Source: a virus. Taken from it: a stretch of 64,000 bases of DNA. Of this stretch, positions 22,789-64,000 are shown piece by piece. Positions within the stretch are counted from its first letter, which is position 1. The number at the start of each line of letters is the position of its first letter. The position numbers and the translations under genes were made by a program. The stretch is from IMG/VR virus record IMGVR_UViG_3300045988_153472. One strand, 5' to 3'. The notes below the pieces were generated by a model. The model made no database searches and was not told the DNA's origin. It was given only the letters and a program-made list of their open reading frames with translations.

Positions 22789-23709
22789 TTAAAAATTAGG
22801 AAGTTTTGGTCTAGCTTTAGTTGTTGCGGCAGAAGCTGCTGTCTCTGGCTGTTTAGCTTTTGCTTTCTCTTCCTCTAAGCGAACTTCTCTATCAGTAATT
22901 GCCTGAGAAATTGCACCAATGTCATATGGTTCTGGAGTTGGTGTTTCACTATCCTCGCCGTAAGCATCAGAAGCATTTGTAATAATCATCTCATTTTTAT
23001 AGATAGTTTTCTTCTCAAATCTTGGTTTACCAATTTTTACAGGAATTTCTTTTGTGATTTCTGCACGACTATTTACAATATCACCATAGAACTTAACAGT
23101 CTGATTTGGTGTATAATCATCTAAAATTGCTTCTGCAATTCCATCTTCTGCTGGAGCAACTAAAGTCATTGGTTCAATTCCTGAATAAGTAGGAACCCAT
23201 CCTTTTACGATAGCACGACCTGTCTCTTCACCTTTATTCTCGCCAGATGTATAAAGTTCTGGTGTAATAGAAGCAATTGCCATTTCTACTTCAAACCAAG
23301 CACGAGGCTCAAATTTCTCTGGATCTCCATCATAACGATTAAAAAACATTGTCTGGTAGGAGACACCTACATGCACCTGTTTGTCTTTTCCGACATAAGA
23401 GCGAGGTCTGATCTGACCATTTGTAACAGTTACTCTTGTAGCTGCATCTTTACCAACTTTAGCAATAGACTGATATTCTCTCATTACAGTTTCAATGCCT
23501 GCATAACAGCCATTATCTGTACCGTCATTTTTCTTTTCATTCACATATACTCTAAATGTTACGAAATTAATGTCTCCTGTCTGCACTGTAATGTCACCAC
23601 TAATGACTTTTTTACCATCTCTTACTGATTCTTCCAGTGTGTTTTCGCTTACAATACCAACTACTTCTACTTTTGTGTCTGCCTGTCTTAAATTTGTTTT
23701 TTCACTCAT
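22789..23709 (-). CDS. Putative single-stranded DNA-binding protein
   Basis: Follows the Sak4-like ATPase. Acidic C-terminal region ending in ...PKLPNF, reminiscent of the gp2.5/SSB C-terminal Phe tails. Assignment is by position and composition only. Confidence 0.3.
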   Translation of the reverse strand: MSEKTNLRQADTKVEVVGIVSENTLEESVRDGKKVISGDITVQTGDINFVTFRVYVNEKKNDGTDNGCYAGIETVMREYQSIAKVGKDAATRVTVTNGQIRPRSYVGKDKQVHVGVSYQTMFFNRYDGDPEKFEPRAWFEVEMAIASITPELYTSGENKGEETGRAIVKGWVPTYSGIEPMTLVAPAEDGIAEAILDDYTPNQTVKFYGDIVNSRAEITKEIPVKIGKPRFEKKTIYKNEMIITNASDAYGEDSETPTPEPYDIGAISQAITDREVRLEEEKAKAKQPETAASAATTKARPKLPNF

Positions 23710-46157: not shown

Positions 46158-46239
46158 TCCACCCAGAGAGACTCGAACTCTCACGCTATTAAGCATTAGA
46201 ACCTAAATCTAACGTGTCTGCCAATTCCACCATGGGTGG
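46158..46239 (-). tRNA. tRNA-Leu (anticodon UAG), type II
   Basis: Reverse complement: acceptor CCACCCA/TGGGTGG, anticodon stem TTAGA/TCTAA with loop TTTAGGT, long variable arm, T-arm GAGAG-TTCGAGT-CTCTC. Manual fold only. Confidence 0.6.
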
Positions 46240-46681
46240 GTACAACTGGCAGTTCAACTGCCAATTGTTAATAATGAAAGCGACTATTATATTTACTTAT
46301 TCACTACTTACCAGCCTTGTACAAACTAAGAGCCAAGTATAATCATGCTCATAAACTTTTACCAAGGATTTGATAAATCTTTATTCTTTATGCTTTATTC
46401 TTTAATCTTTAAACTGGGATAAACTTTGAATTTTGAATTTTAAGATTTGAGTTTTAATCTTTGAACTTTACAGTACTATGGCTATCTGCCTCATCCAATA
46501 ATATAATATATTAAGCTTACAGGTCCTATACGACCACGTAATCCTAATCCATTTTGTATTTTATACTATTATCTACTGTATAAGTAATGCTGTGGTTTCT
46601 TTATTGTTTTATATATGTCTAACCCAGCTAAAAGGACATATAGATTATAGTTTAAAGTTTTCGATAAGCAGTGAATATATC

Positions 46682-47320
46682 TTAGTATGTAATTTCTATT
46701 TCTGTCAGAGAATTACTTACTGAAAGTGCCGCATCTACTTCAGCAGTGAACTCTGCAATTTCTGTTTCTAAATCCTCCATTTCTTTAAGAACACCAATTG
46801 GATCAACAAGTTCCATTGTCTGAGCTTCTATATAGGCTTCTCTAGTTTTTGTAAACTCTTCAGTAGAGGTTTTACCTTCTTTGCTACCATAGAGCCCTAC
46901 AACATAATTTTCAGCTTTATCTTCCAATTTACCATTCTCAGTTATGATCTGAGCCATAGCAGCATCATACTGTTTTTTAATTTTCTGTTTTAAAAGTTTC
47001 TTGAAGTCCATTCCATGATTTTTCATTTCAATAGCTTCAGCTACTGTATACTCTTTATCAGCAACAGTGACTTTAGTTACTGCATTTGAAAGAACTACAG
47101 CTCTTTTAATAGCTTCTCTTCTCTTGATTAAATCAGTTGCTTTATCATAAGAAGATTTCATAACCCCTGTGTAAACTTTGATATCTACACCTTTGACTTT
47201 TGTGTTAGAATGCTTATTTGAAATACAAGCTTCTACACTGTTAATTGCTTTTACAATACGATCATCTAAGATCTTCAGTTCCGCTAATGCTTTGTGTACA
47301 TTCATTTTTTCTGTTGTCAT
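46682..47320 (-). CDS. Hypothetical protein inside the tRNA cluster
   Basis: 212 aa ORF with no recognised motifs. Confidence 0.4.
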   Translation of the reverse strand: MTTEKMNVHKALAELKILDDRIVKAINSVEACISNKHSNTKVKGVDIKVYTGVMKSSYDKATDLIKRREAIKRAVVLSNAVTKVTVADKEYTVAEAIEMKNHGMDFKKLLKQKIKKQYDAAMAQIITENGKLEDKAENYVVGLYGSKEGKTSTEEFTKTREAYIEAQTMELVDPIGVLKEMEDLETEIAEFTAEVDAALSVSNSLTEIEITY

Positions 47321-47361
47321 GATAAATACCTCCTGAATTTTAAACTTTAATTTAATTGCCT

Positions 47362-47435
47362 GTGATAAGAGTGGACTCGAACCACCGACCTCACTTTTGC
47401 AGTGCGCTCTTTTTCACAACTGAGCTACTTATCAC
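47362..47435 (-). tRNA. tRNA-like gene with His identity elements (G-1, C73) but non-canonical anticodon arm
   Basis: Reverse complement: G-1, acceptor TGATAAG/CTTATCA, discriminator C, D-stem GCTC/GAGC with an oversized D-loop, T-arm GGTGG-TTCGAGT-CCACT. The central part CGCAC-TGCAAAA-GTGAG does not give a standard 5-bp stem with a 7-nt loop. Confidence 0.35.
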
Positions 47436-47657
47436 TTTTCATGCATGACCTGTCATGCTGCAGTCACAACAGGATTATGTGTTCTTTGATCAGCTCAATT
47501 CCCTACATTTTCTCTAAAGCTGAATGTTTGTCTCATTACAAAACATCTCAAAAACTATCTGTCTTTCCAGCGCCATCTGATTCTCACTACCAAATCAGCA
47601 ACGGCTCTTTACTATTGAAAATTAGAGCTCTCAAAAGTCACTCATTCGTCAGGAGAA

Positions 47658-47731
47658 GTGGAAACTCTGGGACTCGAACCCAGGACCGACCGGTTATGAG
47701 CCGGTTGCTCTAACCAACTGAGCTAAGTTTC
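47658..47731 (-). tRNA. tRNA-Met (elongator) or tRNA-Ile2 (anticodon CAU)
   Basis: Reverse complement GGAAACT-TA-GCTC-AGTTGGTTA-GAGC-A-ACCGG-CTCATAA-CCGGT-CGGTC-CTGGG-TTCGAGT-CCCAG-AGTTTCC-A is a clean cloverleaf. The G1-C72 pair argues against an initiator. Confidence 0.85.
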
Positions 47732-48100
47732 CATAGTGGGTGAACTTTGAAAACACCCACATATAAAAACGTAACAACTATAATGATTGATTTGTAATCA
47801 TGTCAGCTACACGAACAGTCGTCACCATTCCGTTGCCCCATCACTCACCTCTACCTCACTGACTCAATTACTTTTTTCGCCTTATACTAATTACTCATTA
47901 GCACAAAGCACATCTATATAAATGTTTTGTACATTCAAACCATTGCTACCAATGTACTGTGTTCCCTTTTTTGAACAGGTTCCAGTTATTAAACCATCCA
48001 AAATTTCACTTAAGTTTTATCTATGTTCGCCATGAACATAAGTAGGTATACCTTAGTTCTATTGGTTACCTCTTTGGCCTTCAGAGCTAACTTAGAACTA

Positions 48101-48172
48101 CGGGGTAGATGGGATTCGAACCAGCGAATGCAGCAGTCAAAGTGCTGTGCCTTACCGCTTGGCCACTACCCT
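48101..48172 (-). tRNA. tRNA-Gln (anticodon UUG), with weak T-stem
   Basis: Reverse complement aligns with E. coli tRNA-Gln: AGGGTAG-TG-GCC-AAGCGGTAAG-GCA-CAGCA-CTTTGAC-TGCTG-CATTC-GCTGG-TTCGAAT-CCCAT-CTACCCC-G. The T-stem pairs poorly and position 1-72 is A-C. Confidence 0.5.
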
Positions 48173-48209: not shown

Positions 48210-49310
48210 TTATACTGCATAATGCAATTCTCTACTTTTTGCTCTTATAAAAGTCATATATGCTGGTTTCATTTCTTTGATGATCTTTTCATCTTCTTCA
48301 TTATTATAGTAATTATCACTTTCTAATTTAATATCATTTCCAGATACATAAATGATGCCTTTCTTATGATCAAACTCACAATCAAGAACCTTACAAGAAG
48401 CATCTACATAAGTTCCTTTAAAGCAGAATTCCGGTTCAATCCTTGCACTTTTATCAAAGAAATCAATGGTCAATTTTGTGGTTGCCTCAGAACCATCTTC
48501 AAGATGTAGAGTGACTTCATACATAATACTGTTTAAATTAATAATATTTAGATCTTTGATTGCTGTCTCAAAAGGTTCTCCAAAGTTTAATTCAAATGCA
48601 ATTGCTCTTAAGCAGTCATAGTTTAAATCCACTTTGTGAGCAAAAGAAATTACTTTTTCAATTTCGCTGTAATACTGTTTATCCAATTTGTCTTCTAAGT
48701 ATTCTGTAATTTCAACATCTGACGGATACTCAAATCTAAAATGGTAGTGGAATCTTCCAGGTCTGTTTACTAAATAACTATTTAACGAGTTGAGGTCATT
48801 ACAAGTAATCACAAACATTTTCTTCCCTTGAGACAATCCATCAAACAATGTAAGCATTTCTGTTTGAGGATCTGCCATGCCATCAGCAGCTTTAATACTG
48901 CCAAATGTTTTATCAAATTCATCAAACAGTATCATTACTTCCTGTTCAATTTCTTCTATGAAACTTGCAATTCCAGGAATATACGTGTCTACAATGATAA
49001 CTGGTAAACCAACTTTTGTTGCTTCCACAGCCAATGTCTTTGCAAACAATGATTTGCCGATTCCTTTATTGCCTGACAGGATAACGCCAAGGTTCTTTTC
49101 TGCTTTTGGAAAAGCCTTAAGAACTTTTTCAACCTTACTCATATGTACTCCGTAGGTTTTTTCTTTGATTTCTATGTCTGCATATTTTTCTAAAAAGAAA
49201 CCAGAATTCTTTTGAAACCTCACGACATAATTCTGAGCCGGAAGCTTGTCGAAAGTTTCTAATGAATCGTCGTAAGTTCTAAATGTGTTTCCTACCTTAA
49301 TAATTCTCAT
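48210..49310 (-). CDS. Classic-clade AAA+ ATPase with extra C-terminal domain
   Basis: Walker A ILSGNKGIGKSL, Walker B ILFDEFD, sensor ITCN, and an NRPGRFH arginine-finger region. Confidence 0.6.
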   Translation of the reverse strand: MRIIKVGNTFRTYDDSLETFDKLPAQNYVVRFQKNSGFFLEKYADIEIKEKTYGVHMSKVEKVLKAFPKAEKNLGVILSGNKGIGKSLFAKTLAVEATKVGLPVIIVDTYIPGIASFIEEIEQEVMILFDEFDKTFGSIKAADGMADPQTEMLTLFDGLSQGKKMFVITCNDLNSLNSYLVNRPGRFHYHFRFEYPSDVEITEYLEDKLDKQYYSEIEKVISFAHKVDLNYDCLRAIAFELNFGEPFETAIKDLNIINLNSIMYEVTLHLEDGSEATTKLTIDFFDKSARIEPEFCFKGTYVDASCKVLDCEFDHKKGIIYVSGNDIKLESDNYYNNEEDEKIIKEMKPAYMTFIRAKSRELHYAV

Positions 49311-49350
49311 TTTTTATTCTCCTGTTTTATATCATTGTTTATATCGAAAA

Positions 49351-50253
49351 TCAATGCCCTTTAACATCTGCTTCATGTAATAACATCACATCTGAAAACA
49401 TCTGTTTTCCAATTAAATACTTATCTTTATTCTTTGCCTTGTTTGATTGCGACCATGATAAATAGGGATGCATATGATAATAAATCAAATTTGCTGTATA
49501 AAAAGCATCATATATATCTTTTCCTGTAACCACACCGGAAAAATCAAAACATGTTAAATATTCATAAGCTCCAACACAATGATGCTGATAATAGTGACAA
49601 TAATCATCCTCTTCACCTTTTCCATTTATTTTTGATTTAGTGAAAAGCTTTCCAATATCATGGAGACTAGCTGCCACCCATAAGTTTTCTTCTCTAGGTA
49701 CTCCATCTGAAACCTTTTTCAGATGTTCATAAAGAGTCAAAGAGTGATGTGGGTTCTCTTGATCAAAGTCACGAGCCATATCTATCAATTCTTTTATATC
49801 TTTATGATCATCTTGCACAACTCTAATTTCATTGAACCCTTCATGATACATCGGTGGAGAAAATACTTTCCTCATTCTGGTAATCACTTCGTCAGGAACT
49901 GAATTTTCCCTTTTCGAGTTATCCTCTAAACATTTTTCATATGTTTTCAAAAATACAACGCATGTTTTATAAACATGTTTAGGAACTGCTTTTAAAAAAT
50001 GCACTCTTCTTTTCTTTATCAAATTAGTAGCATCATAAATAACAGAATGCATTTTCAAATCTTCCAATATTCTGCGGTGCAGCTCTTCAAATACTTTATT
50101 GTTGTCTGCGTCATCATAATTATCTCCATACATTTCTTCTCTGAGTTTATCAGAAGAGTGCACTATATAATCAGGATGAGTTTCTGAATACTCTTTAGCC
50201 CATGTACTTTTACCGGAAGCAGGTAAACCTACCAGCATAATTAATTCATTCAT
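49351..50253 (-). CDS. Polynucleotide kinase (P-loop) fused to HD-domain phosphoesterase (Pnk-HD end-healing enzyme)
   Basis: N-terminus MNELIMLVGLPASGKSTWAKEY is a T4-Pnk-like P-loop. The C-terminal half has an HD motif (ASLHDIGK) and further His residues (HYYQHH, YYHMHP). The start was set at the Met whose ATG overlaps the upstream TAA (TAATG). Confidence 0.6.
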   Translation of the reverse strand: MNELIMLVGLPASGKSTWAKEYSETHPDYIVHSSDKLREEMYGDNYDDADNNKVFEELHRRILEDLKMHSVIYDATNLIKKRRVHFLKAVPKHVYKTCVVFLKTYEKCLEDNSKRENSVPDEVITRMRKVFSPPMYHEGFNEIRVVQDDHKDIKELIDMARDFDQENPHHSLTLYEHLKKVSDGVPREENLWVAASLHDIGKLFTKSKINGKGEEDDYCHYYQHHCVGAYEYLTCFDFSGVVTGKDIYDAFYTANLIYYHMHPYLSWSQSNKAKNKDKYLIGKQMFSDVMLLHEADVKGH

Positions 50254-51030
50254 TATGTAATCTCCTCTATTTCTTTGCAAATCTTCTCTGCTATTTCTTT
50301 AGATATGTACTTCTGATTAAAGAATTCTTGTCCAATATCTGATCTAATTTGATATTTTTGATTATCTGGATTAGGTCTCCCTTCTCCATTTACAATTTGA
50401 GGCAACGAAGCAGTCTGAAGATAATCTATATAGTATAAATCCTCTTTTATGCTTCTTCGTTTCTCTCTAATCACTTTCCTAATTTTATATGCCCAATATC
50501 CAGAAGTAACATTCAGTTTATTGAATTCTATATAGTGATCAAGATCCTGAGATATAAGCTCCAGTTCCTTTAGCTGTTTTTCTAAAGGTTTTCTATTACC
50601 TAATATTTCTTTAATAGGCAATATGCTGTCATCTATTTTCTTTTTATAATCACCAATCTCTACAAGAGATTTATTCTGCTGTACAAAACCAACTCTCTCA
50701 TCAACTGATGTTACTTTCCAAGGGGCGTATATGCTTAAATTTTTAGGAATTGTTGATATCCTGTTTAAAGCTTTCGGTACATTGTCAAACTTCTGAGCAG
50801 ATTTTAAATCCACCACATGAGGAGGACTTCCATGTTTAAATACCAAATAATTTCCAGGATATTTTTCACTTTCTAAAACATATCTCATTTTCCTCTTCCT
50901 TTTGTGATATATGTATTATAACATACTTCGTATTCTGTGTCAACAAGTTTTTTTACAAACTTGTTTATTGATTAAAACTGTTCTCCTTTCTCTTAACTTG
51001 CTCTAAGTATACCATAGTCATTTCACCTTG

Positions 51031-53067
51031 TCAACACTTTTTTACAAACTTGTTTAAAAATTCTTTTTCTGAAATTATCGGGACACCAAGCTGCATAGCT
51101 TTCACATTCTTGCTACTCTTTGACAATGTATCATTATTAATAAGGTAGTTAGTTTTTTTAGTTACTGATCCTGTGACTTTACCTCCAAGAGACTCTATTT
51201 TCTCTACTAGAGCTGCTCTATTGGCAAACTCGGTGAGTGTCCCAGTAATACAGAATATTGCCCCATTCAAAACATCTTTTACCGTCTCCTGAGAAATTTC
51301 TTCAAACTGGAATTCCGCAGCAAGCTCAGTTATGTATCTTTGATTTTCTTCAAAATAATTTTTCAAAGAAGAAGCTTTCGCAAAACCAAAGTCTTCCAAA
51401 CATGTAAAATCATACTGAGAATCCATATCTTTAATAAAGCTATCAAAAGCTGTTTTTAACCCTTTTTCTCTTGCTCTCTTCTCTTCAACAATGTTTAGCT
51501 GCTTACTAACACTTCGACCGATTAAAGGTATGGACAGCCCATAAAGGAATTTAGGCAGAGTTGTCTTGCGGCATTTTTCTATTGATTCCAGGATTTTATC
51601 AACCTTTTTTGCTCCTAGCCCTTGTAATGTCACTAACATTCCCCGGCAGTCTTTTAGATAAAATAAGTCTAAAGGCCCTTTAATAAATTCTTTCTCTATT
51701 AATAGACTCAGAGTAGATTTAGAAAGCCCTGTAATATCATGTGCTTCTTTGCTTACAAAAGTACATAATTCACCAAGAAGTTTCCCTTTACATTCAAGGT
51801 TCATGCACTGAAGCTCTTCTGTCTCATTTTCACCTGTAATTTTTACATGACCACCACAAATAGGGCACTTGTCAGGCACAGTAAACAATTTGTCACCGTT
51901 TCTGGTCAAATTCTCTGCGATCTGCGGAATGATCATGTTTGCCTTATATACCGTAATCGTATCTCCTACTGACAGTTCATAACTTTTGAAAATACTCACA
52001 TTATGTAAGCTAGCTCTTTCAACAATAGTATCATCTATTTCAACCGGATCAAAAACTGCCACAGGTGTCAACTGTCCAGTCTTTCCCATGCTCCATTCCA
52101 CATCTCTAATTACTGTTTCAAACTTATCATCTGCAAATTTATATGCCAATTGTGATCGAACATGATGTGATGTGTTTCCTAAGCTTTCACTATAATCAAT
52201 ATCATCATATGAAAATACGATTCCATCAATAGGAACATCTTTTTCTCTTGCGGTTTTTCTAAGTTCTTTAATATTCTCTTCAATATTATCAACTTTTACC
52301 CAAGGGACCACTTCAAATCCTAACAGATCTAATATCTGTAATCTTTTCATGAAACTATTTCCATCTATTCCACGAACGGCCTTCCAAGCAATGAACTTGA
52401 TTTTTCTTTCTTTTGTAACGGAGTTATCAAGCTGTCTAACAGAGCCAGCAGTTAAATTTCTGATATTCTTAATACCATTATCTTTAATATATTTTTCTAA
52501 TTCTTCACCAAAAAGTCCCTTTCTTTCTCCATCTTTTTTCAGATCAATATCTTTTAGCTCTTTAAGATAAGTATAATGATGGATTTCCATGACAGCTTCT
52601 CCATCAACTACTACTTCATCTTTATAAGGAATTTCCTTTGGAAGATTTACAAAACTGTTTGCTGTATGTAAAACATTCTCTCCGATGATTCCATTCCCTC
52701 TAGTTTCTGCAGCAACCAATTTACCATCTATATATTTTACTGAAATAGTAAGCCCATCCATTTTTAGCATGGCTAATCCTGGCAAACCATTCATAAAACT
52801 TTCAACTTCATTTATATCCTTTGTTTTGTCTAAGGACAACATTGGATGATCATGTTCGACTTTTTCTAACTCACTAACTGTTTCTGAGCCAACATTGATA
52901 GTGGGACTGTTGGCTAAAATAATACCTGTAACTTTCTCAAGTTCTTTAAGTCGATCATATTTTTTATCATATTCATAATCAGAAATTAGAGAAGTATCTT
53001 CCATATAATACGCATGAGCATATATATTTAATTCTTCCACTAATTCACGCATTTCTTTTAAAAGCAC
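51031..53067 (-). CDS. ligA: NAD+-dependent DNA ligase
   Basis: 678 aa. Adenylation motif LKMDGLTISVKY (KxDG), Zn-finger CPICGGHV...C...C, and a C-terminal BRCT-like region (IFCITGTL...). Confidence 0.8.
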   Translation of the reverse strand: MLLKEMRELVEELNIYAHAYYMEDTSLISDYEYDKKYDRLKELEKVTGIILANSPTINVGSETVSELEKVEHDHPMLSLDKTKDINEVESFMNGLPGLAMLKMDGLTISVKYIDGKLVAAETRGNGIIGENVLHTANSFVNLPKEIPYKDEVVVDGEAVMEIHHYTYLKELKDIDLKKDGERKGLFGEELEKYIKDNGIKNIRNLTAGSVRQLDNSVTKERKIKFIAWKAVRGIDGNSFMKRLQILDLLGFEVVPWVKVDNIEENIKELRKTAREKDVPIDGIVFSYDDIDYSESLGNTSHHVRSQLAYKFADDKFETVIRDVEWSMGKTGQLTPVAVFDPVEIDDTIVERASLHNVSIFKSYELSVGDTITVYKANMIIPQIAENLTRNGDKLFTVPDKCPICGGHVKITGENETEELQCMNLECKGKLLGELCTFVSKEAHDITGLSKSTLSLLIEKEFIKGPLDLFYLKDCRGMLVTLQGLGAKKVDKILESIEKCRKTTLPKFLYGLSIPLIGRSVSKQLNIVEEKRAREKGLKTAFDSFIKDMDSQYDFTCLEDFGFAKASSLKNYFEENQRYITELAAEFQFEEISQETVKDVLNGAIFCITGTLTEFANRAALVEKIESLGGKVTGSVTKKTNYLINNDTLSKSSKNVKAMQLGVPIISEKEFLNKFVKKC

Positions 53068-53419
53068 TCTTCTTCCTCCATTTTATACAATATAACATAA
53101 TCTTTACCATGAACAAATTTTTCCCCTTCTCCAACTGGAACCTCTTCATAAAGCTTCGGCTCCAGTCTTATGTAGGAATCTCCGGTTTCTACTCTTACAA
53201 CATCTCCCTCTTCATATATATTTTCAATTACAAAGTTCATCCACCCCATTTCCATGCCATTTATGTGACAAATTAATCCAATTCTCTCCTCAGTTCCAAA
53301 ACATTCATAAAGTCTCTCTAACACTGCAATCCCTCCAATGTTCGAACGCTTGTTCGCTTGTTATGTTTAAATATTACCACACACAGCAAATTAAGTCAAT
53401 CTATGTGTGGTATTATCTA

Positions 53420-54331
53420 TTATAAATAACTATAAAATTTATTTTTAAGAGTTCCTTTGCCATAAGAACTTATATTATAATTTGAACTAACCATTTCAAC
53501 ATACTGGCTTTCAAAGATATCTTCCTTAGAAACATTATATTTCTTCATTATTTCTCTAAACTGCTCTACAATTCCGGCTGTATAGAGTCGAGGAATAGTC
53601 AGATACGGAATATTAAGCTCTTTTCTAAGCGCAATTAACCTATTTGTCAGTCTTAGATTTAAAGCTTCTAATGAATCACTACGTGTATTATTCCTGGAGT
53701 TAACAATATTCCCCTTCATACTTAATAAAGAAGCAGTTCCAGTAAAAGATATATACTCCTCCTCTTGTGAACTAACTTTAGCCAAGTCTACCAGCGTCTC
53801 TGACAAAGTTTTTTCCTCTCCGTTTTCGAAAGTAAGGATATTACCATTCAACTTACTTATTTTAGCTCTTAAAAGCTCACCGGGGGCTTCTGTTCTTACT
53901 CCTTCAAACAAAGCCAGAATTAAAAATTTATCAGAATAGTTTCTAATTTTAGAAATATCCTTTAAAACCTGTTCTCTGCTGGGACACACCGCTCTCTCCT
54001 TATTAAGATATTTCTGTAGACTTTCAATTTCCATATTTATTTCATCATAGTGATTTATGTTGTCTATAGATATGTTGCAGGAACAACACCAGTCAGCATA
54101 TTTCCGTAAAACACTTATATTTTTCCTTAAGGCATTTATTGATGAGGCTGCAAATGTAGACAACAATTTATCTATTTCAGAAAAAGTAAAATCACATAAG
54201 TCCTTGTTAAGTAAGTCCTCATAGTCTTCCGTTTTGTTAAAAAGAGCTTTCGCACTTTGTGGAGTTTGTCCGAGATCTTCTACTACATGTCGCAGATATT
54301 CTTTCTTCCGTTCTTCATTATACATAATCAC
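53420..54331 (-). CDS. Degenerate tyrosine-recombinase-like protein
   Basis: Retains a box-I-like segment (LFEGVRTEAPGELLRAKISKLNGNI). In the expected box II position it reads TIPRLYTAGI, with no H-x-x-R ... H motif. Confidence 0.3.
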   Translation of the reverse strand: MIMYNEERKKEYLRHVVEDLGQTPQSAKALFNKTEDYEDLLNKDLCDFTFSEIDKLLSTFAASSINALRKNISVLRKYADWCCSCNISIDNINHYDEINMEIESLQKYLNKERAVCPSREQVLKDISKIRNYSDKFLILALFEGVRTEAPGELLRAKISKLNGNILTFENGEEKTLSETLVDLAKVSSQEEEYISFTGTASLLSMKGNIVNSRNNTRSDSLEALNLRLTNRLIALRKELNIPYLTIPRLYTAGIVEQFREIMKKYNVSKEDIFESQYVEMVSSNYNISSYGKGTLKNKFYSYL

Positions 54332-55536
54332 ACCTCCTCAAATAAAGCTTTTATTTTATTTACTTTCATGTTTGTAACACTATTAATAATCGGCACATCT
54401 TTTCCTAATGCACTTTCTATTTTTTCTGCACATTCATATGCATCCTTTGAGATAGATGAACCATATAACACTACTGGCATAGTGGTGTCATCAAATACAA
54501 CATCTGGATTATTCTCTTGAACTATCTTCAAAATATTTATGATAAATACCGCAGTTTTGATACACTGACTCCGGTTCATATTTTTAGTTTTAAGAATAAA
54601 CTCCAATAATGAAAACAAAGTAGCTCTGTCTATTTCTCCTCTATGTGCTCTTTCAATTTTACCTCTTACTGGACTATCCAATGTGTTGTTTAGTTTGTCA
54701 ATAATTATATTAGTAGGAGACGACTTATCCATAGAAGCTAAGTAACTTTTAGAAATCTTATTTCTCTTATCTTCCTGCTCAATATACTGACATGCTTTGT
54801 CTTCTGTAAAATTCATGATATTCAGAATAAAATTAAACTGAAAATCAGGATTCTTAATTTTCGTGTTTATTGCAGCTCTAAACCGGTGAAAACCATCAAT
54901 GATATCAAATTTACCAGAATTAAGTATCAATTCTGATCCAACAATATCAAAATCTACCTCTGGATCATCAACATTGAGATTAAGAGTTAAAGCATTGGGT
55001 ACAAATTCTCCCTTGCTCATTAAACCTTCAATAGCTTTTACTGATGAAGAAACTATATCAATTGTATATGATACATCTTGTCCTCTACGTCTCTGTTTAA
55101 GTTGACGCTGAGTCCTTGGATTGTATATTATAAGCTGGTTATCATAAAACTCTTTTAGTAAATCAATACTTATTTTTGTCACCCATTGATCTTCAGCTAT
55201 CTCTATCACTGGACTTATTCTTATTGGATAAATATCTGTTTTTAAATAATCTGCCTTTAGGCTCGAAAATCTTACTATTTCCTTATCAGAAAAATATGTT
55301 TTCATTTCCATATTTGCCCTAAAAACATTATTAAACGCATCAATAAGCCAATACATTTCATTGTCTGGAATCTCATCTTTACTTTTCGCTCCAATGATAT
55401 ACTGCATATATTCAATATCTGAATATTCATATTTTTTCATAAGAAATTTTTGTACTTCTCTCTTGTAATATGAATTTTTCTGGATTTGAGAAAAATACTT
55501 ATCCAGTATCTCATACAGGTTTTCACTTCTTAACAT
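54328..55536 (-). CDS. DGQHR/DGQQR-motif ParB/Srx-superfamily protein (DndB- or DUF262-like)
   Basis: The motif IIDGFHRFRAA sits in the expected ParB-like position. 402 aa. The ATGA overlap with the downstream gene suggests an operon. Confidence 0.45.
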   Translation of the reverse strand: MLRSENLYEILDKYFSQIQKNSYYKREVQKFLMKKYEYSDIEYMQYIIGAKSKDEIPDNEMYWLIDAFNNVFRANMEMKTYFSDKEIVRFSSLKADYLKTDIYPIRISPVIEIAEDQWVTKISIDLLKEFYDNQLIIYNPRTQRQLKQRRRGQDVSYTIDIVSSSVKAIEGLMSKGEFVPNALTLNLNVDDPEVDFDIVGSELILNSGKFDIIDGFHRFRAAINTKIKNPDFQFNFILNIMNFTEDKACQYIEQEDKRNKISKSYLASMDKSSPTNIIIDKLNNTLDSPVRGKIERAHRGEIDRATLFSLLEFILKTKNMNRSQCIKTAVFIINILKIVQENNPDVVFDDTTMPVVLYGSSISKDAYECAEKIESALGKDVPIINSVTNMKVNKIKALFEEV

Positions 55537-55576
55537 TTTGCAACCTCCTTTCTTGTATTATATCATTGTTTAGAAC

Positions 55577-56584
55577 TTATTTCAATAAACTATTTACATA
55601 TTTAGCAGCTTCAGCATTAATGGGCTTTCGAACGATGTATCTTTGTGTCGTGTCAGGCCGAGAATGATTCATTAATTGCTGTACATATGCAATGTCTCCT
55701 GTCTGATCATATAATAATGTAGCAAAAGTACTTCTAAATTTATGAGGAGTAATATGTTTTTCAAAATCTGCGGTATATGCCTTAACTAAATCTCTCACTG
55801 ATTTGTCAGTGATTCTTGTTCGTCTGTTAGAAATAAAAAGAGCATTACAATCTCTTTTATTCAAAAGTTCTGCACGTTTTATTACCCAATTTCTTAAAAT
55901 ATCCATACTATCATCATCAAGTTCACATTCATAAGTGTTTCTGCGCTTATCAGTAACCCTAATAATCTTCTGATCCCAGAATATATCTTCCATATTAAGT
56001 TCTGTAAGCGCAGTAACACGAATACCAGTTACCATAAGAAGAGTAAATATAGCAAGGTTTCTTTCCTTCCATGCTTCTCTTCTTGCGTTGGCCCTTTTTG
56101 TACCAATAGAATTATCATTTATTCTTTCAACAACTTTTTTCAACTCTGCAGCTGTCATTGCAACCTGTTTAAGCGGATCTTTTACAGAAACTCTTTTTAT
56201 GCCACAATCAAAAGGGTTCTCTGAAATCATTTTCCTACTTAACAAATAATCAGCAAATGATTTTAATGCCGTATAAGTAGTTGCTTTAGCACTATCTGAA
56301 CTGTATCCTCCATCTCTTCCTCTTAAACAAGAGAGATAAGAGTTTACATTGTCAATAGTCATCGCTCCATTACAATCTTCTATTGACTCTATAAACCCGT
56401 TTTCTTTCAAATAGTTCATAAACCTAACAGCCGTCATAGTATAATTTTGCGCAGTAAGATATTCGCATGAATTGAATAGACCATTATAATAACCAGTGAA
56501 ATATTGTGGCTTATCCCTAAGCAATGCTCTCATCTTGCTTTCTGATTTATATTTATGTTCTTCTCTTCCTTTCATGCAATTCAC
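55577..56584 (-). CDS. Tyrosine recombinase (XerC/D- or phage-integrase-like)
   Basis: C-terminus HKFRSTFATLLYDQTGDIAYVQQLMNHSRPDTTQRYI (H-x-x-R ... H ... Y) and an upstream LRxxEL-type box I (GIRVTALTELNMEDI). Confidence 0.8.
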   Translation of the reverse strand: MNCMKGREEHKYKSESKMRALLRDKPQYFTGYYNGLFNSCEYLTAQNYTMTAVRFMNYLKENGFIESIEDCNGAMTIDNVNSYLSCLRGRDGGYSSDSAKATTYTALKSFADYLLSRKMISENPFDCGIKRVSVKDPLKQVAMTAAELKKVVERINDNSIGTKRANARREAWKERNLAIFTLLMVTGIRVTALTELNMEDIFWDQKIIRVTDKRRNTYECELDDDSMDILRNWVIKRAELLNKRDCNALFISNRRTRITDKSVRDLVKAYTADFEKHITPHKFRSTFATLLYDQTGDIAYVQQLMNHSRPDTTQRYIVRKPINAEAAKYVNSLLK

Positions 56585-56585
56585 C

Positions 56586-57302
56586 TCACCATCTAAATTT
56601 GTGGTCTAATCCACTTCCACTAATTCCATGTTTATTTCTTTGTTCAAGGATTTCTTTTCTTACTTTTTCATGCTTTGAATGAAAATAAGCTGCTGCTACC
56701 GCCCACATTGTTATCAGTAGACTCAAACCAGAAAGTCCAGCCATTAACAGTACAAATGATATTATTCCTAATATAACTATAGTCTTTGCATCAGACTCGT
56801 CCCAAACATCTACATGCTTTGCTGCCTTGGAATCAGGATCACTTGTTTCCCCCCATGTCCATGGATTCGGCAAAGGTATTGGCTCATAGTCATCCCTCAC
56901 TACAGCAATAGGGAATGGATAAGCTTCTTCCATTTCAAAATCTAATGAGTCTACTTCTACTCGGACAGTACAATTGGGATGATAGTTCCAAACCTTATTT
57001 CCGGTTCTTACTACTTGAAAAGTTCCTTGCTGACCGGGCCTCAGTGCTTTTTCTGTCAGCTCAACTTCTTCATGTATAGGATATAGATTGAACCCGTATT
57101 TTTCATCCCAATTGTTTTTATTGTCTTCAGTAACTTTGAGCAATAATAAACCTGTATTTTGCTTTGCGTCTGTCATTTGTACCGGAGGCCATTTAGCATA
57201 TTCATGCGCACTTTCATAAATTTCTTCCAATGTTTTGCCAGGTACCCTATATGTCCAACCTGGCTTCATATCTCTTACTTTAACTTTCTTTCCCAAATTC
57301 AC
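56586..57302 (-). CDS. Hypothetical protein with C-terminal TM anchor, first gene of the recombinase cassette
   Basis: 238 aa with a TM segment IVILGIISFVLLMAGLSGLSLLITMWAVAAAYF. The stop abuts the recombinase start. Confidence 0.4.
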   Translation of the reverse strand: MNLGKKVKVRDMKPGWTYRVPGKTLEEIYESAHEYAKWPPVQMTDAKQNTGLLLLKVTEDNKNNWDEKYGFNLYPIHEEVELTEKALRPGQQGTFQVVRTGNKVWNYHPNCTVRVEVDSLDFEMEEAYPFPIAVVRDDYEPIPLPNPWTWGETSDPDSKAAKHVDVWDESDAKTIVILGIISFVLLMAGLSGLSLLITMWAVAAAYFHSKHEKVRKEILEQRNKHGISGSGLDHKFRW

Positions 57303-57849
57303 CTTACCTTTCCTTGGTACAAAAAGATGGTTATTTACAGTTTATAGTATTTATGTAGTTTTTTCAATAGGTCTCCATCCTACAACACACTTATCTGTCC
57401 AATTTCTCCATTCATAATTTCCATATTTCCCTTTAACCATCATATCTTTTCTTATAGCTCCATCTTTTAAAAGAATTTCTACTTCCTTATACAGTTCAGG
57501 AAAGTCTCCCCATTCTGTGTGCCAACTCGTATTTTTACCTTCTCTACCTTTCAATTCTATTTAGCATTTATTTCTTATAGGGCTCACTGTTATATTTCCA
57601 TGCTGTTATTTCTACTCTAACTTCATCGTCGGTTAACGACCAATACCAATCTCCATCATTTCTATACGCAAATGCATCACAATAAGGCTCATGATCGTTA
57701 TATCCAATATATGTTACTTGTACATCTTCCATATCATCTGGTAATAAACCAGTACTAATGGGAGTCCAACTATTATTTTTCATATTAATCTCCATTCCGC
57801 CGCTTTGCGGCGGCACAAATAGTGATGAAAGATTTCTCTTTCCCCTACA

Positions 57850-59450
57850 CTGTGCAATAATAGTTTCAAGAAGCTATACTACAAAGCACGGGAGGAGGAG
57901 TTGTAGAAACCTTTCTCGTTTTAAGACAGCATATTAATCAGTGTAAGTTCTGCCTTTTCAAGCACAAATGAGCGGCATCACGAATCCGTACACTAAGAAT
58001 TGTTTAAACGCCTTGATTTAATTGTGTGGCAGTTCAGTCAATGGCTTCTTATCTTTTTACGAAAGGAGCGTTTGCTTATGAAAGTCACTTTTCAAACTTG
58101 TTGTGGCGTCGATGTTCACAAATCTTTTCTCGTTGCCACAATCATCAAAACATCCAGCGGCATTGAACCTTCCTATCAGAAAAGACGTTTTTCTACTTTC
58201 AACAATTCTATTCTTGAATTCAAGAAGTGGTTGCTTGAAAATGAATGCCTCTATGTCTGCATGGAATCCACTGGTAAGTACTGGATCCCTGTCTTCAATC
58301 TTCTTGAAGATGAAATCAATGTTACTATTGCTAATCCCAAGTGGGTTAAAGCTGTTAAAGGTAACAAGGATGACACAAAGGATTCGAAATGGATTGGAGA
58401 TTTGTTCCGTTTAGGACTGGTAAGGGGCAGTTATATACCTTGCAAAAAAATCCGTATTTTACGTGAATTTACAAGGTATCGCTACAAGCTTGTTTCCTGC
58501 CGTTCCAGTGAAAAGAATCGGTATCAGAATGCGCTTACTGTTTGTAATGTCGCATTAGACTCTGTTGTTTCCGATATCTTTGGGAAGTCATCCACATCCA
58601 TCATTGACTACCTTTTAGGGCAGTCTGGAACTTCTATTGACCATGAAGTGATTGCATCAAAACTTCTTAAGCGCCTCAAAGCTAAAGAAGATGCTGTTAT
58701 TGAATCCATTGAAGGATATCAGATGACTGATTCCCAAAAATATCGTATGCACCTCGTCCGTGCACATATGGATTATATCACAGCTGCGATCAATGATGTA
58801 GATTCTGAAATTGAATCTTTAATCTCTTCTGATCCTGATTATGAAAATGCTGTCGAGTTACTCTGTACCATTCCGGGTGTTAAATATGATAGTGCAATCA
58901 CCATCATCTCCGAAATCGGTATTGATATGTCTCAATTCTGTTCCTCTAAACGTTTATGTTGCTGGGCTGGATTAACTCCTGGCAGCAATGAATCTGCGGG
59001 TAAGAAGAAATCTGTTCGGATTACACGTGCCGGTGTCTACCTCAAACCTGCATTAGTACAGTGTGCCCATGCAGCCGTGAAATCTGACAAATCCCCTTAC
59101 TACAAAAAGAAATATGAATCTCTTGTAAAACGTCGTGGTAAGAAACGAGCTATCATTGCAATCGCAAGAATGATTCTCACTGCAATCTTCCAGATGTTAA
59201 CAACTGGAGAAACTTGGAATCCCTGCGATCTTTACAAAATCGATATGCCTGAAGCTTTACTGGAAAAGCAAAAGCAAAAGGCAATCAAACAAGCTCAGAA
59301 ACTGCTAATTCGTGAAGGTTTATTGCCTCCAACCGAACCAATAGCTTCTTGATTTTTGATTACTACATATTGCTTTCTAAAAGTTGCCTTTACAGGTAGC
59401 TTGTTTCAGTGCGCCACTTTTTGGCTGCCCTCTACTTTCTTTCACACTAT
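57850..59450 (+). mobile_element. IS110-family insertion sequence (boundaries approximate)
   Basis: Single plus-strand gene in a minus-strand block, with locally higher GC than its surroundings. A GC-rich hairpin CCGCCGCTTTGCGGCGG lies at about 57798-57814. Confidence 0.5.
58078..59352 (+). CDS. IS110-family transposase
   Basis: N-terminal DEDD-type domain MKVTFQTCCGVDVHKS...; C-terminal transposase_20-like region (...LCTIPGVKYDSAITIISEIGIDMSQF...). The start was taken at the ATG after an AAAGGAG RBS rather than at the upstream ORF start. Confidence 0.8.
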   Translation: MKVTFQTCCGVDVHKSFLVATIIKTSSGIEPSYQKRRFSTFNNSILEFKKWLLENECLYVCMESTGKYWIPVFNLLEDEINVTIANPKWVKAVKGNKDDTKDSKWIGDLFRLGLVRGSYIPCKKIRILREFTRYRYKLVSCRSSEKNRYQNALTVCNVALDSVVSDIFGKSSTSIIDYLLGQSGTSIDHEVIASKLLKRLKAKEDAVIESIEGYQMTDSQKYRMHLVRAHMDYITAAINDVDSEIESLISSDPDYENAVELLCTIPGVKYDSAITIISEIGIDMSQFCSSKRLCCWAGLTPGSNESAGKKKSVRITRAGVYLKPALVQCAHAAVKSDKSPYYKKKYESLVKRRGKKRAIIAIARMILTAIFQMLTTGETWNPCDLYKIDMPEALLEKQKQKAIKQAQKLLIREGLLPPTEPIAS

Positions 59451-59454
59451 TCTC

Positions 59455-59643
59455 CTATGTAACTAACCCAAACTCTTTAATAAGTCTCTGCACAACCATC
59501 CGGTTACATTTCTTATAAGCAATAGACAATGTTTTCTTTACACCTTCTTTCTTATAAATTGAATGTCCACCAGTACAATGATCTAGTTCCCAGCCATTCT
59601 TTAGAATGATTCTCTCAACTTCTCTTCTGTTATAAGTTTTCAT
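59455..59643 (-). CDS. hicA: HicA-family mRNA interferase toxin
   Basis: 62 aa. ...GWELDHCTGGHSIYKKEG...LIKEFGL matches the HicA G-S/G-H-x-x-Y core and LGL-type C-terminus. Confidence 0.6.
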   Translation of the reverse strand: MKTYNRREVERIILKNGWELDHCTGGHSIYKKEGVKKTLSIAYKKCNRMVVQRLIKEFGLVT

Positions 59644-59741
59644 ATTTCACCTTCTTTCATTTAAATATCCATTCAATAATAACTCTTGCTATAACTCCTA
59701 TTAAAAAATACTGCAATTTTATCCCCTTATTTTTATTTGTA

Positions 59742-60584
59742 TTATAAGAAATATCCAACTGTTTTATCCTTTGGCTTTCCCCAAATAGATTCGTATAGAT
59801 ACTCTACCGTACTAGGTGCAATTCCATGATAGTTACACAATTCTTTAAATACTTCATATTTTGGTCTGGCATCAATATCTTCAATTATTTCTTCTAACGA
59901 AGTTTCAACATAATCAGAAGTAACACCATATCCAGGAATAGGTCCATACATATAATCTTTTAGCTCTTCATAAATTTCATCACTGTATTTATGACCGTTA
60001 TTATTTGATTCCTCTGATGTTAATATTGTTGCTCCAGTTTCTTCTGGTTCAGTTTCTTTAGACTCTTTTTTTTCGTCTTGAATAATTTCATCTGCCTTGA
60101 ACAGAATAATATTGTTCATATGCCACTGATAGTCATCATCAATACACGAATCAAATGAATTAACTTCGAATATATCATCATTGGTTATGTCAATGTCATA
60201 ATCATTAGCCATTTTAGCTGTAGACTCTAACATATGATTTTTACATTCTTCCAAAGTGCCAATCTTCTCTACATAGAATCCAACACCTTCGTAAGCATGA
60301 TGATAAATACAAAGATAATCTCCATCTTTTATTTCAATTTCATGAATAGTGTTAACATAGAATTCTCCATCTCCGTATGAATAATCAATTCGCATGATCT
60401 GGTCGTCGGATCCGTCTACATTTTTATATTCAAGCTCACTTATTACTTCTTCTCGGCTTTCCTCTGTTTCATTAATCAAGCTATCTATAACCCATTTATG
60501 AGCTTCAAAAGCAGTTTCAAAAAAGTAAAAATATGGTTCTCTATAATGTTCACTATCCAATGTACATAGTAAATATATCTTCAT
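59742..60584 (-). CDS. Hypothetical acidic protein upstream of hicA (HicB not recognisable)
   Basis: 280 aa with an acidic C-terminus. No RHH/HTH motif was seen. Confidence 0.3.
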   Translation of the reverse strand: MKIYLLCTLDSEHYREPYFYFFETAFEAHKWVIDSLINETEESREEVISELEYKNVDGSDDQIMRIDYSYGDGEFYVNTIHEIEIKDGDYLCIYHHAYEGVGFYVEKIGTLEECKNHMLESTAKMANDYDIDITNDDIFEVNSFDSCIDDDYQWHMNNIILFKADEIIQDEKKESKETEPEETGATILTSEESNNNGHKYSDEIYEELKDYMYGPIPGYGVTSDYVETSLEEIIEDIDARPKYEVFKELCNYHGIAPSTVEYLYESIWGKPKDKTVGYFL

Positions 60585-62150: not shown

Positions 62151-62918
62151 TTAACCCATATGGTTACATGAATACTCTGATATTTCTTCTAATCTTTCAA
62201 CTACATAGTCAGGCAAATATCCACATTCTGAACATATACAAATTTTACCAAGAACATATAGGCATACCTTATCTTCTGGGATACCCTTTCTTTTGAATGA
62301 TTCAGCCATAGGTTCGCACTCCTCGCTTCTATCTTTTTTACAATAGTATTGCGCAGAACATCTGTCACATCCATAAACAGCACCTTCAAAATTAGGAAAA
62401 TACCAATCTAATATATCTGACTCAATTCCGTTGCCATTGTCTCCTGAGCATTCTATCATTTGTGTACTGAAATCAAGAGGGACATACGGATCATTGCAGG
62501 AAAAGTCTCTTATATAAAAAGGCGCATGAACTCCGATTTCCATTTTAGAAATCCAAAAATTGACATAGTCTTTGTATGTATCACAGTTGATCCAATCAAT
62601 TACTCCCGGTAATTCTTCATAATGGTCAAGGCCAAACATCAATCTCAACTGAGTGTCAGCAATTTTTGTACAGTCCCACGATTTCTTTGAGTGTAAATAT
62701 TTACCTCTTTTTTCAGTAACAACTTCAAACACATCAGGATAATATTCTTCTACATAGCTATACATTTCAGAACAAGATTTATAATATTGTTTATAAAATT
62801 CTTTTATTTCTTGATATGCCGAATCAATAGTTACTGTGTTGTCGTTTGCTTTGCCAATAATAAAACTTGAAGAACTACTATTAGTTACAAATCCGTTACG
62901 AATCTTCAATGGTATCAC
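62151..62918 (-). CDS. Leader-family paralog P3 (Cys-rich C-terminal domain)
   Basis: Probable TTG start preceded by a GAAGGGG RBS, giving MKIRNGFVTNSSSSSFII. The C-terminal part carries many Cys residues (CDRCSAQYYC ... CICSECGY ... SCNHMG). Confidence 0.55.
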   Translation of the reverse strand: MIPLKIRNGFVTNSSSSSFIIGKANDNTVTIDSAYQEIKEFYKQYYKSCSEMYSYVEEYYPDVFEVVTEKRGKYLHSKKSWDCTKIADTQLRLMFGLDHYEELPGVIDWINCDTYKDYVNFWISKMEIGVHAPFYIRDFSCNDPYVPLDFSTQMIECSGDNGNGIESDILDWYFPNFEGAVYGCDRCSAQYYCKKDRSEECEPMAESFKRKGIPEDKVCLYVLGKICICSECGYLPDYVVERLEEISEYSCNHMG

Positions 62919-63467: not shown

Positions 63468-63929
63468 TCAATGATGACTAATAGCAGCAAGACAACAATT
63501 CATATCCGGTACAACATGATGTTCAAGGGTTGAATACATAAGACCATCATTGTCTGAATAATTAATCTCTACAAATACAGAGTACCCTTGCATATCTTCC
63601 TCTAACTCAGACATCCTATCTGTTATTGCTTTATTAAGCTTTTCCTGGAATTCTTCCGTTTTTCGTATTTCAAGTTTCTTACTATAAGGTACATAGAGAC
63701 TGTCTTCTATCTCCCAAAGAGTCTGATAATAGATTTCTTCTGAATATCCTTCCAAAACATCTTCTCTATCCAACTTTGCAGCTTCCGTTACATCTCTTAA
63801 GATTTCCTCAAAGTATTCTTCTTCAAGATTTTCTTTCTGCAGCTCCTCTTTGATACTTTCTTTACTCTTGAAGCCAAGAATGAAACTACTACTGCTGCTA
63901 TTAGTTACAAATCCTTTTCTAATCTTCAT
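63468..63929 (-). CDS. Leader-family paralog P4 (acidic coiled C-terminal domain)
   Basis: ATG after a GGGAGG RBS gives MKIRKGFVTNSSSSSFIL. The C-terminus is Glu-rich. Confidence 0.55.
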   Translation of the reverse strand: MKIRKGFVTNSSSSSFILGFKSKESIKEELQKENLEEEYFEEILRDVTEAAKLDREDVLEGYSEEIYYQTLWEIEDSLYVPYSKKLEIRKTEEFQEKLNKAITDRMSELEEDMQGYSVFVEINYSDNDGLMYSTLEHHVVPDMNCCLAAISHH

Positions 63930-64000
63930 GATCAATCCTCCCATTCGACATCTTCTCTAGCTACACCAATTAATAATAAAAACTTTTCCATGTCAAAATT

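Follow-up and report, generated by a model that had tools for sequence, protein, structure and literature searches.

The cassette and its relation to the sro operon

The stretch of viral DNA analyzed here, referred to below as the window, comprises 64,000 nucleotides (nt) of the IMG/VR record IMGVR_UViG_3300045988_153472, and the subject of this work is a gene cassette located in it at 57302..53420. According to the ORF list of the window, this interval is filled by four open reading frames (ORFs) on the minus strand. The original prediction presented them as a four-gene unit consisting of a transmembrane (TM) protein, a tyrosine recombinase, a protein with a DGQHR/ParB-like motif and a degenerate recombinase, and could not match this unit to a described system. 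In our analysis, the last three of these genes are related, judged by sequence and gene order, to the 3′ half of the sro repression operon of the phages SPbeta and phi3T. The genes of the cassette and the features that follow it are listed here in the direction of transcription (aa, amino acids; positions are those of the window):

56586..57302, minus strand: ORF1, 238 aa, with a soluble N-terminal part and a C-terminal hydrophobic segment
55577..56575, minus strand: ORF2, Xer-like tyrosine recombinase, 332 aa from ATG 56575
55557..55585, minus strand: promoter-like sequence TTGAAA-17-TATAAT with an upstream TG, spanning the end of ORF2 and the ORF2-ORF3 gap
54328..55536, minus strand: ORF3, 402 aa, YopQ/SroE homolog with a predicted ParB/Srx fold (DndB/DGQHR-like)
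53420..54325, minus strand: ORF4, 301 aa, homolog of the MrpR/YopR/SroF family of master repressors, with a tyrosine-recombinase fold and predicted to be catalytically dead
53368..53419, no strand assigned: imperfect 19-nt inverted repeat with a perfect core of 9 base pairs (bp), directly after the ORF4 stop
53371..53399, minus strand: promoter-like sequence TTGACT-17-TAATAT with an upstream TG, just upstream of the LexA box
53343..53356, no strand assigned: perfect Firmicute LexA (Cheo) box CGAACGCTTGTTCG, just downstream of the -10
53058..53324, minus strand: acidic ORF, 88 aa, net charge -13, overlapping the start of ligA by 10 nt

In regard to the junctions between the genes, ORF2 can alternatively start at GTG 56584, giving 335 aa, so the gap to ORF1 measures either 1 nt (GTG start) or 10 nt (ATG 56575), and the reported gap of 40 nt between ORF2 and ORF3 was found as described. 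An ATGA overlap between ORF3 and ORF4, on the other hand, could not be recovered. The start of ORF4 at ATG 54325 (301 aa) is better supported than GTG 54331 (303 aa), as a GAGGAGG ribosome-binding site lies 7 nt upstream of it. The two genes are therefore more likely separated by 2 nt, and the GTG start would give a 4-nt overlap of the form GTGA. The best promoter-like sequence of the region, at 55585..55557, agrees with the consensus in 11 of 12 positions and, by analogy, likely drives ORF3-ORF4. Isolated phages gave no match in a near-identity DNA search with 53000-58000, and no Rfam family was recognized in 52900-59900.

ORF4 matched the Pfam family MrpR_N_CB with an E-value of 2.9e-22 (79.5 bits, the cut-off being 27), and a protein identical to it in public assemblies bears both MrpR_N_CB and MrpR_C_cat. 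Nearly the full length of ORF4 was aligned to the solved SPbeta YopR/MrpR structures 8bj6, 8bjv and 8a0a in the PDB (E about 4e-15), and pairwise BLASTP with phi3T_97 (YopR) gave 3e-15; NCBIfam returned no match. At E<=1e-10 the MrpR-like family holds 562 cluster representatives, all of about 300 aa. The ORF4 family is also related to the ORF2 family (hhalign, 96% probability, E 1e-9), and in the profile-profile alignment of ORF4 to the ORF2 family the catalytic H, R, H and Y positions are occupied in ORF4 by P, Y, K and I. These four positions are not conserved across 24 members of the ORF4 family, and the box I arginine is present only in the window lineage and in the related locus L014. The original description of ORF4 as a degenerate recombinase was thus correct in regard to the loss of HxxR and of the second histidine, to which the tyrosine has to be added; the box I arginine is real but it is not a feature of the family. 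Taken by sequence, ORF4 is a member of the MrpR/YopR/SroF family, and a catalytically dead one as far as its residues predict.

ORF3 was matched to phi3T_96/YopQ by pairwise BLASTP (1e-21) and to phrog_5732 (1.3e-49). ORF3 itself has no hit in Pfam, DndB and DUF262 included, and none in NCBIfam, and sequence searches of the PDB with ORF3, both alone and as a profile of 26 sequences, gave no match. Among its 26 homologs, seven match Pfam DndB at E<=0.01, with the best E-value of 1.1e-5. An AlphaFold2 model of ORF3 (predicted local distance difference test, pLDDT, 85) retrieved Noc, ParB, Spo0J and PadC in Foldseek with probabilities of 0.94-0.99 and E about 2e-3, and KorB, Noc and ParB are among its best structural matches. 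Because Foldseek retrieves these proteins, the earlier assignment of the IIDGFHRFRAA protein to the ParB/Srx fold of the DGQHR/DndB/DUF262 kind is right at the level of the fold. The structural matches indicate the ParB N-terminal CTPase fold, as in KorB, Noc and the partition proteins ParB/Spo0J, and the same fold is common to the DUF262 proteins BrxU and SspE. The motif itself occupies residues 212-222 and reads DGFHR, not DGQHR. The ParB family carries the motif GERRxRAA, and GFHRFRAA of ORF3 is a comparable GxxRxRAA-like motif. Three motifs, YNxxTQR, DIIDG(F/Y)HR and QxDKRN, characterize the ORF3 family; Y138, N139, T142-Q143-R144, D211, I213-D214-G215, H217-R218, Q254 and D256 are invariant in the 26 homologs, and K257-R258-N259 nearly so.

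Homologs of ORF3 were found by tblastn in phi3T, in SPbeta-like phages of Staphylococcus and Mammaliicoccus, in Geobacillus virus E3, in the Clostridium botulinum phage c-st and in others, and public assemblies hold the identical protein in 384 index blocks, the longest of its contigs reaching about 230 kb. In public phage records, that of Geobacillus virus E3 among them, YopQ-like genes are labelled as "DNA sulfur modification protein" or "DGQHR domain protein". Such labelling probably misleads, since the constant neighbour of these genes is an MrpR-like repressor gene.

ORF2 matched Pfam Phage_integrase (2.5e-27) and the phrog_216 integrase (5.5e-34), and in NCBIfam it is XerA/XerC/XerD-like, below all cut-offs. 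In all 20 sequences compared (ORF2 of the window and 19 homologs from other loci) R186, K210, H278-x-x-R281, H304 and Y313 are invariant, which bears out the catalytically intact tyrosine recombinase of the original prediction. Judged from these residues and from its place in the gene order, ORF2 is an intact Xer-like recombinase in the position of YopP/SroD. Brady et al. (2023, Cell Host Microbe 31:2023) are said to have described SroD as an auxiliary repressor. ORF1 was likewise correctly taken for a TM protein, with one hydrophobic stretch at residues 169-207, approximately, by hydropathy. It belongs to no family in Pfam, PHROGs, NCBIfam or PADLOC, and its homologs were found only in the 87%-identical relative L038 and not in more distant loci. 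ORF1 is a lineage-specific accessory gene, outside the conserved module.

The order and orientation of ORF2-ORF3-ORF4 are those of phi3T_95 (YopP, integrase-like), phi3T_96 (YopQ) and phi3T_97 (YopR). In that operon, an integrase domain was described for YopP and a ParB_N_Srx domain for YopQ, with YopR as the repressor (PMC8612738). MrpR/YopR has been characterized as a master repressor with a tyrosine-recombinase fold that lost the recombinase function and binds the repeated element SPBRE (PMC10516654), and transcription of yopQ and yopR goes on while the prophage is dormant (bioRxiv 10.1101/2021.11.22.469490). The operon was later renamed sroA-F (PMC10769878), and SroE (YopQ) was reported as a second repressor needed for lysogeny, by a mechanism that is unexplained (bioRxiv 10.1101/2025.11.27.690993). 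The cassette that had seemed to match no described system can therefore be identified, from the MrpR_N_CB match, the YopR structures, the YopQ homology and the gene order, as a homolog of yopP-yopQ-yopR (sroD-sroE-sroF), with ORF2 as the putative counterpart of yopP. Further features common to SPbeta/phi3T and the window are a tyrosine-recombinase gene upstream, an SPbeta-like replication module and a LexA-controlled small gene after the repressor.

Relatives of the locus were compared in 6 GTDB loci, which are distant, and 47 IMG/VR loci. Adjacency was counted in 27 more distant loci from metagenomes, viruses and metagenome-assembled genomes (MAGs) holding the whole ORF3-ORF4 pair. In all 27, the ORF3-like gene is directly followed by the ORF4-like gene, overlapping it or a few nt apart in nearly all cases. 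As for the ORF2-like recombinase, 18 of these loci have it immediately upstream of the pair and five at a distance of 2-4 kb upstream, and it was not seen in the remaining four; ligA follows the pair in several lineages. Given the constant adjacency of the pair, the mostly upstream position of the ORF2-like gene and the restriction of ORF1 to L038, the conserved unit is, on this sequence comparison, ORF3-ORF4, usually with ORF2, and it consists of three genes and not four. The linkage of ORF2, ORF3 and ORF4 proposed for the four-gene cassette is thereby retained, and ORF1 drops out of it. In Geobacillus virus E3 the recombinase, YopQ-like and integrase-like genes follow in the same order as in the window (GP148-147-146), the YopQ-like gene being annotated as a DNA sulfur modification protein. 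Phage c-st has a YopQ homolog and a yopR homolog (annotated as such, CST029-030), followed by a small ORF and the NAD-dependent DNA ligase gene ligA (CST029-CST032 in all), again in the order of the window. It differs in that the stretch shown has no upstream recombinase and no LexA box, and its small ORF is basic and not acidic.

Two of the GTDB loci, L011 and L012, come from MAGs of CPR bacteria, labelled as Absconditabacterales and Saccharibacteria, and carry complete trios of recombinase, YopQ-like and MrpR-like genes on contigs of 54-125 kb. They are probably Firmicute phage contigs that were put in the wrong bin; a LexA box of the Firmicute type, with 1 mismatch, is present in L012.

The region downstream of ORF4

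The 9-bp inverted repeat noted on the left side of the cassette is real. Its core arms, TACCACACA and TGTGTGGTA, lie at 53375-53383 and 53404-53412 and are the only two copies of the repeat in the window, where 0.31 would be expected, and they extend to imperfect arms of 19 nt. The repeat at 53368..53419 is kept in L038; the -35 of the next promoter (53399..53371) lies within it and the -10 partly so, and the RNA of the repeat folds with -25.5 kcal/mol (z -5.55). It could serve either as a dyad operator or as a hairpin that terminates the transcript of the repressor. A classical intrinsic terminator was rejected, as the hairpin is strong but has no U-tract. The repeat was also considered as a recombinase core site and discarded, its arms being 14-20 nt apart compared to the 6-8-bp spacers of Xer/Cre sites; no better candidate for such a site was found in 52900-57900.

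The LexA box at 53343-53356 is the sole match with no more than 1 mismatch in the whole window, and it is situated just upstream of the ribosome-binding site of the 88-aa ORF. A tandem repeat of CGCTTGTT had been described here as the boundary of the cassette. The repeat is present (CGCTTGTTCGCTTGTT at 53347-53362), but the sequence is better read as the perfect LexA box, and in L038 the LexA half-sites are kept and the tandem repeat is lost. The position of the box recurs in relatives: among 22 non-redundant related loci, 8 of the 12 LexA-like boxes are located within 150 nt after the stop of the MrpR-like gene (binomial P 1.8e-13, with lineages that are not fully independent).

Acidic ORFs of 88-113 aa, with a net charge of -10 to -16, follow the LexA box in L012, L038, L046, L047, L050, L056, L061 and L062. 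A hidden Markov model (HMM) built from six of these acidic ORFs, with the window sequence excluded, matched the 88-aa ORF of the window at E 0.0036, and it also matched the syntenic ORFs in L013, L038 and L043-45 and none elsewhere among 2103 ORFs. A comparable arrangement is known in the Bacillus phages, where Sar (phi3T_99), YopT in SPbeta, is a LexA-controlled antirepressor encoded just downstream of sroF, which mimics DNA and binds SroF (bioRxiv 10.1101/2025.11.27.690993). In the corresponding region of phi3T, the Sar gene stands behind a LexA box with 2 mismatches. A LexA-box-controlled gene near the 3′ end of the repressor gene, as in Sar/YopT, is thus present at 53343-53356, and the small acidic protein encoded after the repressor gene behind a LexA-box promoter is common to both. 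Likewise, the Sar/YopT family diverges quickly, as expected for specific repressor-antirepressor pairs, and so does the acidic ORF family.

The two differ in other respects. In the window the small gene comes directly after the repressor gene, and no yopS-like gene separates the two. The 88-aa ORF has no similarity to phi3T Sar (BLASTP E 43), and its predicted monomer (pLDDT 81) is modelled with one helix and seven strands, whereas Sar has three helices and four strands. Foldseek with this monomer model did not place YopT (2DLB) or the SroF-Sar entries in its top 50; Sar itself forms an intertwined dimer. The fold matches that were obtained, HemS/PhuS and the CARM1 N-domain, look like generic beta-meander matches and were set aside. 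Since no homology is detectable in sequence or predicted fold, we regard the 88-aa ORF as a candidate SOS-induced antirepressor that would be analogous to Sar/YopT, not demonstrably homologous to it and not a member of the Sar family.

Following the Bacillus model, the promoter in the ORF2-ORF3 gap would express ORF3 and ORF4 in the lysogen. ORF4, no longer cutting DNA, would bind long asymmetric operators in the phage genome and act as the master repressor of lytic promoters, and ORF3, as a ParB/DndB-like DNA-binding protein, could serve as the required second repressor or as a co-repressor. The enzymatically intact ORF2 may play an auxiliary role and not that of an integrase. Upon DNA damage, LexA would leave its box at 53343-53356, and the promoter at 53399..53371 would fire, so that ligA and the early genes would be expressed along with the 88-aa acidic protein. 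This protein would then most likely titrate ORF4 off its operators, in the way that Sar/YopT does in phi3T/SPbeta, and induction of the prophage would follow.

Prophage context and alternative explanations

The prophage comes from a gut metagenome; it is not a Bacillus phage, has 33-34% GC, and the window covers only half of it. Its replication genes are SPbeta-like, with the YorF and YorH families, DnaB and a split DnaE whose parts have a NUMOD4 gene between them. Features at the prophage end and on the right side of the cassette are as follows:

169-241, minus strand: tRNA-Arg ccg, prophage end
584-1777, plus strand: tyrosine integrase of 397 aa, near tRNA-Arg, with an HTH_17 Xis-like gene alongside
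about 57785-59447: IS110-family element with its transposase ORF at 58000-59352 on the plus strand

In the sibling contig L066 (1-9417), the sequence beyond the integrase holds host-like genes for MetA/HTS, a LigA of 652 aa, NlpC/P60 and a deacetylase with choline-binding repeats. Because the tRNA-Arg, the integrase and the Xis-like gene lie at one end and host-like genes beyond them, the phage is integrated next to tRNA-Arg. The presence of this second tyrosine integrase at the left end also means that ORF2 is probably not the phage integrase. The host is probably a Firmicute with choline-binding surface proteins.

We therefore place considerable, though not full, confidence in reading the cassette as a lysogeny-repression module of an integrated SPbeta-like prophage in a low-GC Gram-positive gut bacterium. 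Several observations weigh against this. The proteins of the window share only 23-28% identity with the Bacillus proteins, and phmmer with all phi3T_86-108 proteins recovered only the YopQ and YopR homologs in the window. Homologs of sroA-C (YopM/N/O), AimR, AimP and AimX were not found in the window, where divergent analogs are possible, and for this reason the upstream signalling half of the Bacillus system appears to be missing or replaced. The orthology of ORF2 and YopP is not established, since the similarity between them is weak and generic (pairwise BLASTP E 3e-4 to phi3T_95). The 88-aa ORF does not resemble Sar/YopT in sequence or fold, so the role given to it follows from its position, charge and LexA box, and phage c-st has neither the LexA box nor the acidic ORF. 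A clear multi-copy operator of the SPBRE kind was not seen in the half of the phage present in the window, where only a 29-nt element occurs in two or three copies. Integration is different as well: SPbeta integrates by the serine recombinase SprA (PMC10516654), and the window phage has a tyrosine integrase at tRNA-Arg. Finally, the module is known here from sequence and predicted structure, and the steps of its action are modelled on work in Bacillus.

The point on which the lysogeny-repression reading could most readily be modified is the function of the acidic gene. It is possible that LexA directly gates the early lytic operon and that the 88-aa protein is no antirepressor but a DNA mimic directed against host defence or repair, or just the first early gene; we hold this to be unlikely, yet to be taken seriously. 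Since the acidic ORF reaches into ligA and stands first in a long series of genes for replication and nucleotide metabolism that are all read in one direction, the LexA promoter may simply be an early promoter, and the absence of Sar/YopT likeness would be consistent with that. The inactivation of ORF4 would then need another route. Against this reading, the acidic ORF family keeps exactly this place in several lineages, after the repressor gene and ahead of downstream genes that vary, with ligA only sometimes next to it. A partner co-evolving with the repressor would be expected to stay fixed in this way, and co-evolution has been reported for Sar-SroF pairs.

Other proposals, all raised by the original prediction, would change the meaning of the cassette as a whole. 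In a plasmid-style maintenance module, ORF2 would be an Xer-like multimer resolvase, ORF3 a ParB-like centromere binder stabilizing a phage-plasmid, and ORF4 an accessory DNA-binding factor. The intact Xer-like ORF2, the ParB-like fold of ORF3 with Noc, ParB and Spo0J as top Foldseek matches, the occurrence of YopQ-like genes both in c-st, a plasmid prophage, and in C. difficile phage records that are circular and about 130 kb long, and the finding that the GTDB representative genomes gave no close relative of the window phage would all suit such a module. We nevertheless consider it improbable: no ParA/Walker ATPase of the ParA/CbiA/AAA_31 type was found near the cassette or in the Pfam-annotated window, the phage has its own integrase and Xis-like gene at tRNA-Arg, with the host-like MetA, LigA and NlpC/P60 flank in L066, and the homologs in the integrated SPbeta/phi3T act in repression and not in partition. 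In addition, ORF3 is always coupled to the repressor gene and not to the recombinase.

Still less credible is a mobile DNA-modification or defence module, in which ORF3 would be of the DndB/DpdB/GmrSD type and the recombinases would move the cassette. The DGFHR motif, the fold common to BrxU and SspE, the seven homologs reaching Pfam DndB and the sulfur-modification labels in public records speak for it. Compared to DndB/DGQHR and DUF262 proteins (GmrSD, BrxU, SspE), however, ORF3 itself remains below detection by Pfam DndB, DUF262 and PADLOC, and it is always paired with an MrpR-like repressor gene. No dndACDE, dpd, ssp, nuclease (DUF1524/HNH) or methylase partners appeared in the Pfam annotation of the window and its flanks, and the Bacillus homolog is a lysogeny factor. 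PADLOC found no match for any of the five proteins, and the defence explanation was dropped. There is no sign of cassette mobility either, as the cassette occupies the same syntenic place in all relatives and lies beside ligA in distant phages. We attach the least probability of all to a transposon like Tn554, encoding a pair of tyrosine-recombinase transposase subunits plus another protein. Like TnpA/TnpB/TnpC of Tn554, the cassette has two recombinase-fold genes and one more in a tight cluster, and the ORF2 and ORF4 families are indeed related, but one of the two, ORF4, is inactive along with its whole family, which lacks the catalytic H, R, H and Y, and belongs to the MrpR repressors. Furthermore, the flanks are identical in all sibling contigs, ligA synteny reaches distant phages, NCBIfam gave no transposon-type matches, and no evidence of transposition was seen.

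Other features of the window and biological meaning

Upstream of the cassette there are small ORFs, a HicA-like gene and the IS110 element. The IS110 copy reported on the right of the cassette was confirmed by Pfam DEDD_Tnp_IS110 and Transposase_20 on the same gene in the sibling contig L004. Its insertion site is flanked by the stop of the HicA-like gene (59455) on one side and by the start of an 82-aa DUF551-like ORF on the other. Most sibling contigs do not have the element; in L003 and L005-L008 the empty site reads TAGGAGAATA directly joined to ATATGAAAAAT, from which a recent and polymorphic insertion can be concluded. The right end of the element, GGAGATTA, resembles the target GGAGAATA. 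IS110 is thus a lineage-specific addition, outside the system.

As putative operators, two candidates can be named, the dyad at 53368-53419 and the 29-nt element at 22766/50949. This element, TTTTTTACAAACTTGTTTAT[A/T]GATTAAAA, occurs at 22766-22794 and 50949-50977 (28/29 identity) and partially, with 79%, at 51038-51066. The copies at 50949 and 51038 abut the TTGACA -35 boxes of two tandem minus-strand promoters after ligA, and the element could be a repressor operator or an UP element. A k-mer scan of 30 intergenic segments revealed no widely repeated motif that would represent a multi-copy operator, with a filter of at least 3 G/C per 12-mer that would miss AT-rich boxes like the phi3T SroF box. 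A further similarity, of 78% over 36 nt, was observed between the promoter-like sequences at 55551-55586 and at 49320-49355, the latter preceding an AAA/nSTAND3 gene (48210-49310), and a common promoter type or a common operator may account for it. Conceivably, this gene for a STAND-like ATPase serves the prophage in defence and is expressed in lysogeny.

Elsewhere in the window, positions 23000-46000 carry an unusual load of metabolism and stress genes, including genes of NAD salvage and synthesis (NAMPT, NAD synthase, a PRPP-synthase-like gene and NADAR) as well as TerD, a vWA-TerF-like gene, a PspA-like gene, a P-type cation ATPase (873 aa), Band_7, an RNA ligase and RlaP. Three further tRNAs (Leu, Met, Gln) are located at 46158-48172. 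Four paralogous genes, at 37646-38424, 62151-62918 and 63468-63944, have a conserved 5′ end of about 69 nt and N-termini of the form MKI(R)xGFVTNSSSS, and similar N-termini, MKRQIRKNVFETNSSSTH, were seen after the repressor gene in L011.

In conclusion, the cassette is most likely a remote member of the SPbeta sro repression module from outside Bacillus, one that seems to lack arbitrium, and the system itself is already described. Its recognition removes a false lead, since the "DNA sulfur modification" label on YopQ-like genes invites a reading in terms of defence or modification, and it would extend the SPbeta repression system to abundant prophages of the human gut. The invariant motifs YNxxTQR, DIIDGxHR and QxDKRN mark residues by which the unexplained role of SroE as a second repressor could be probed. 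The most interesting new detail is the conserved LexA-controlled acidic partner gene. Taken together, it is conceivable, although we lean somewhat against the combined claim, that the pair of MrpR/SroF and YopQ/SroE is not a speciality of Bacillus but a widespread arbitrium-free switch of large temperate Firmicute phages of the gut and rumen. In many of them it would be coupled to acidic proteins of 74-120 aa under LexA control that form a family not described before; with an all-beta fold that sets them apart from Sar/YopT, these might represent a second, independently evolved class of antirepressors for recombinase-fold repressors. That a repressor gene, a LexA box and an acidic ORF follow one another in conserved order leads to a testable prediction of how such gut prophages would be induced by DNA damage.

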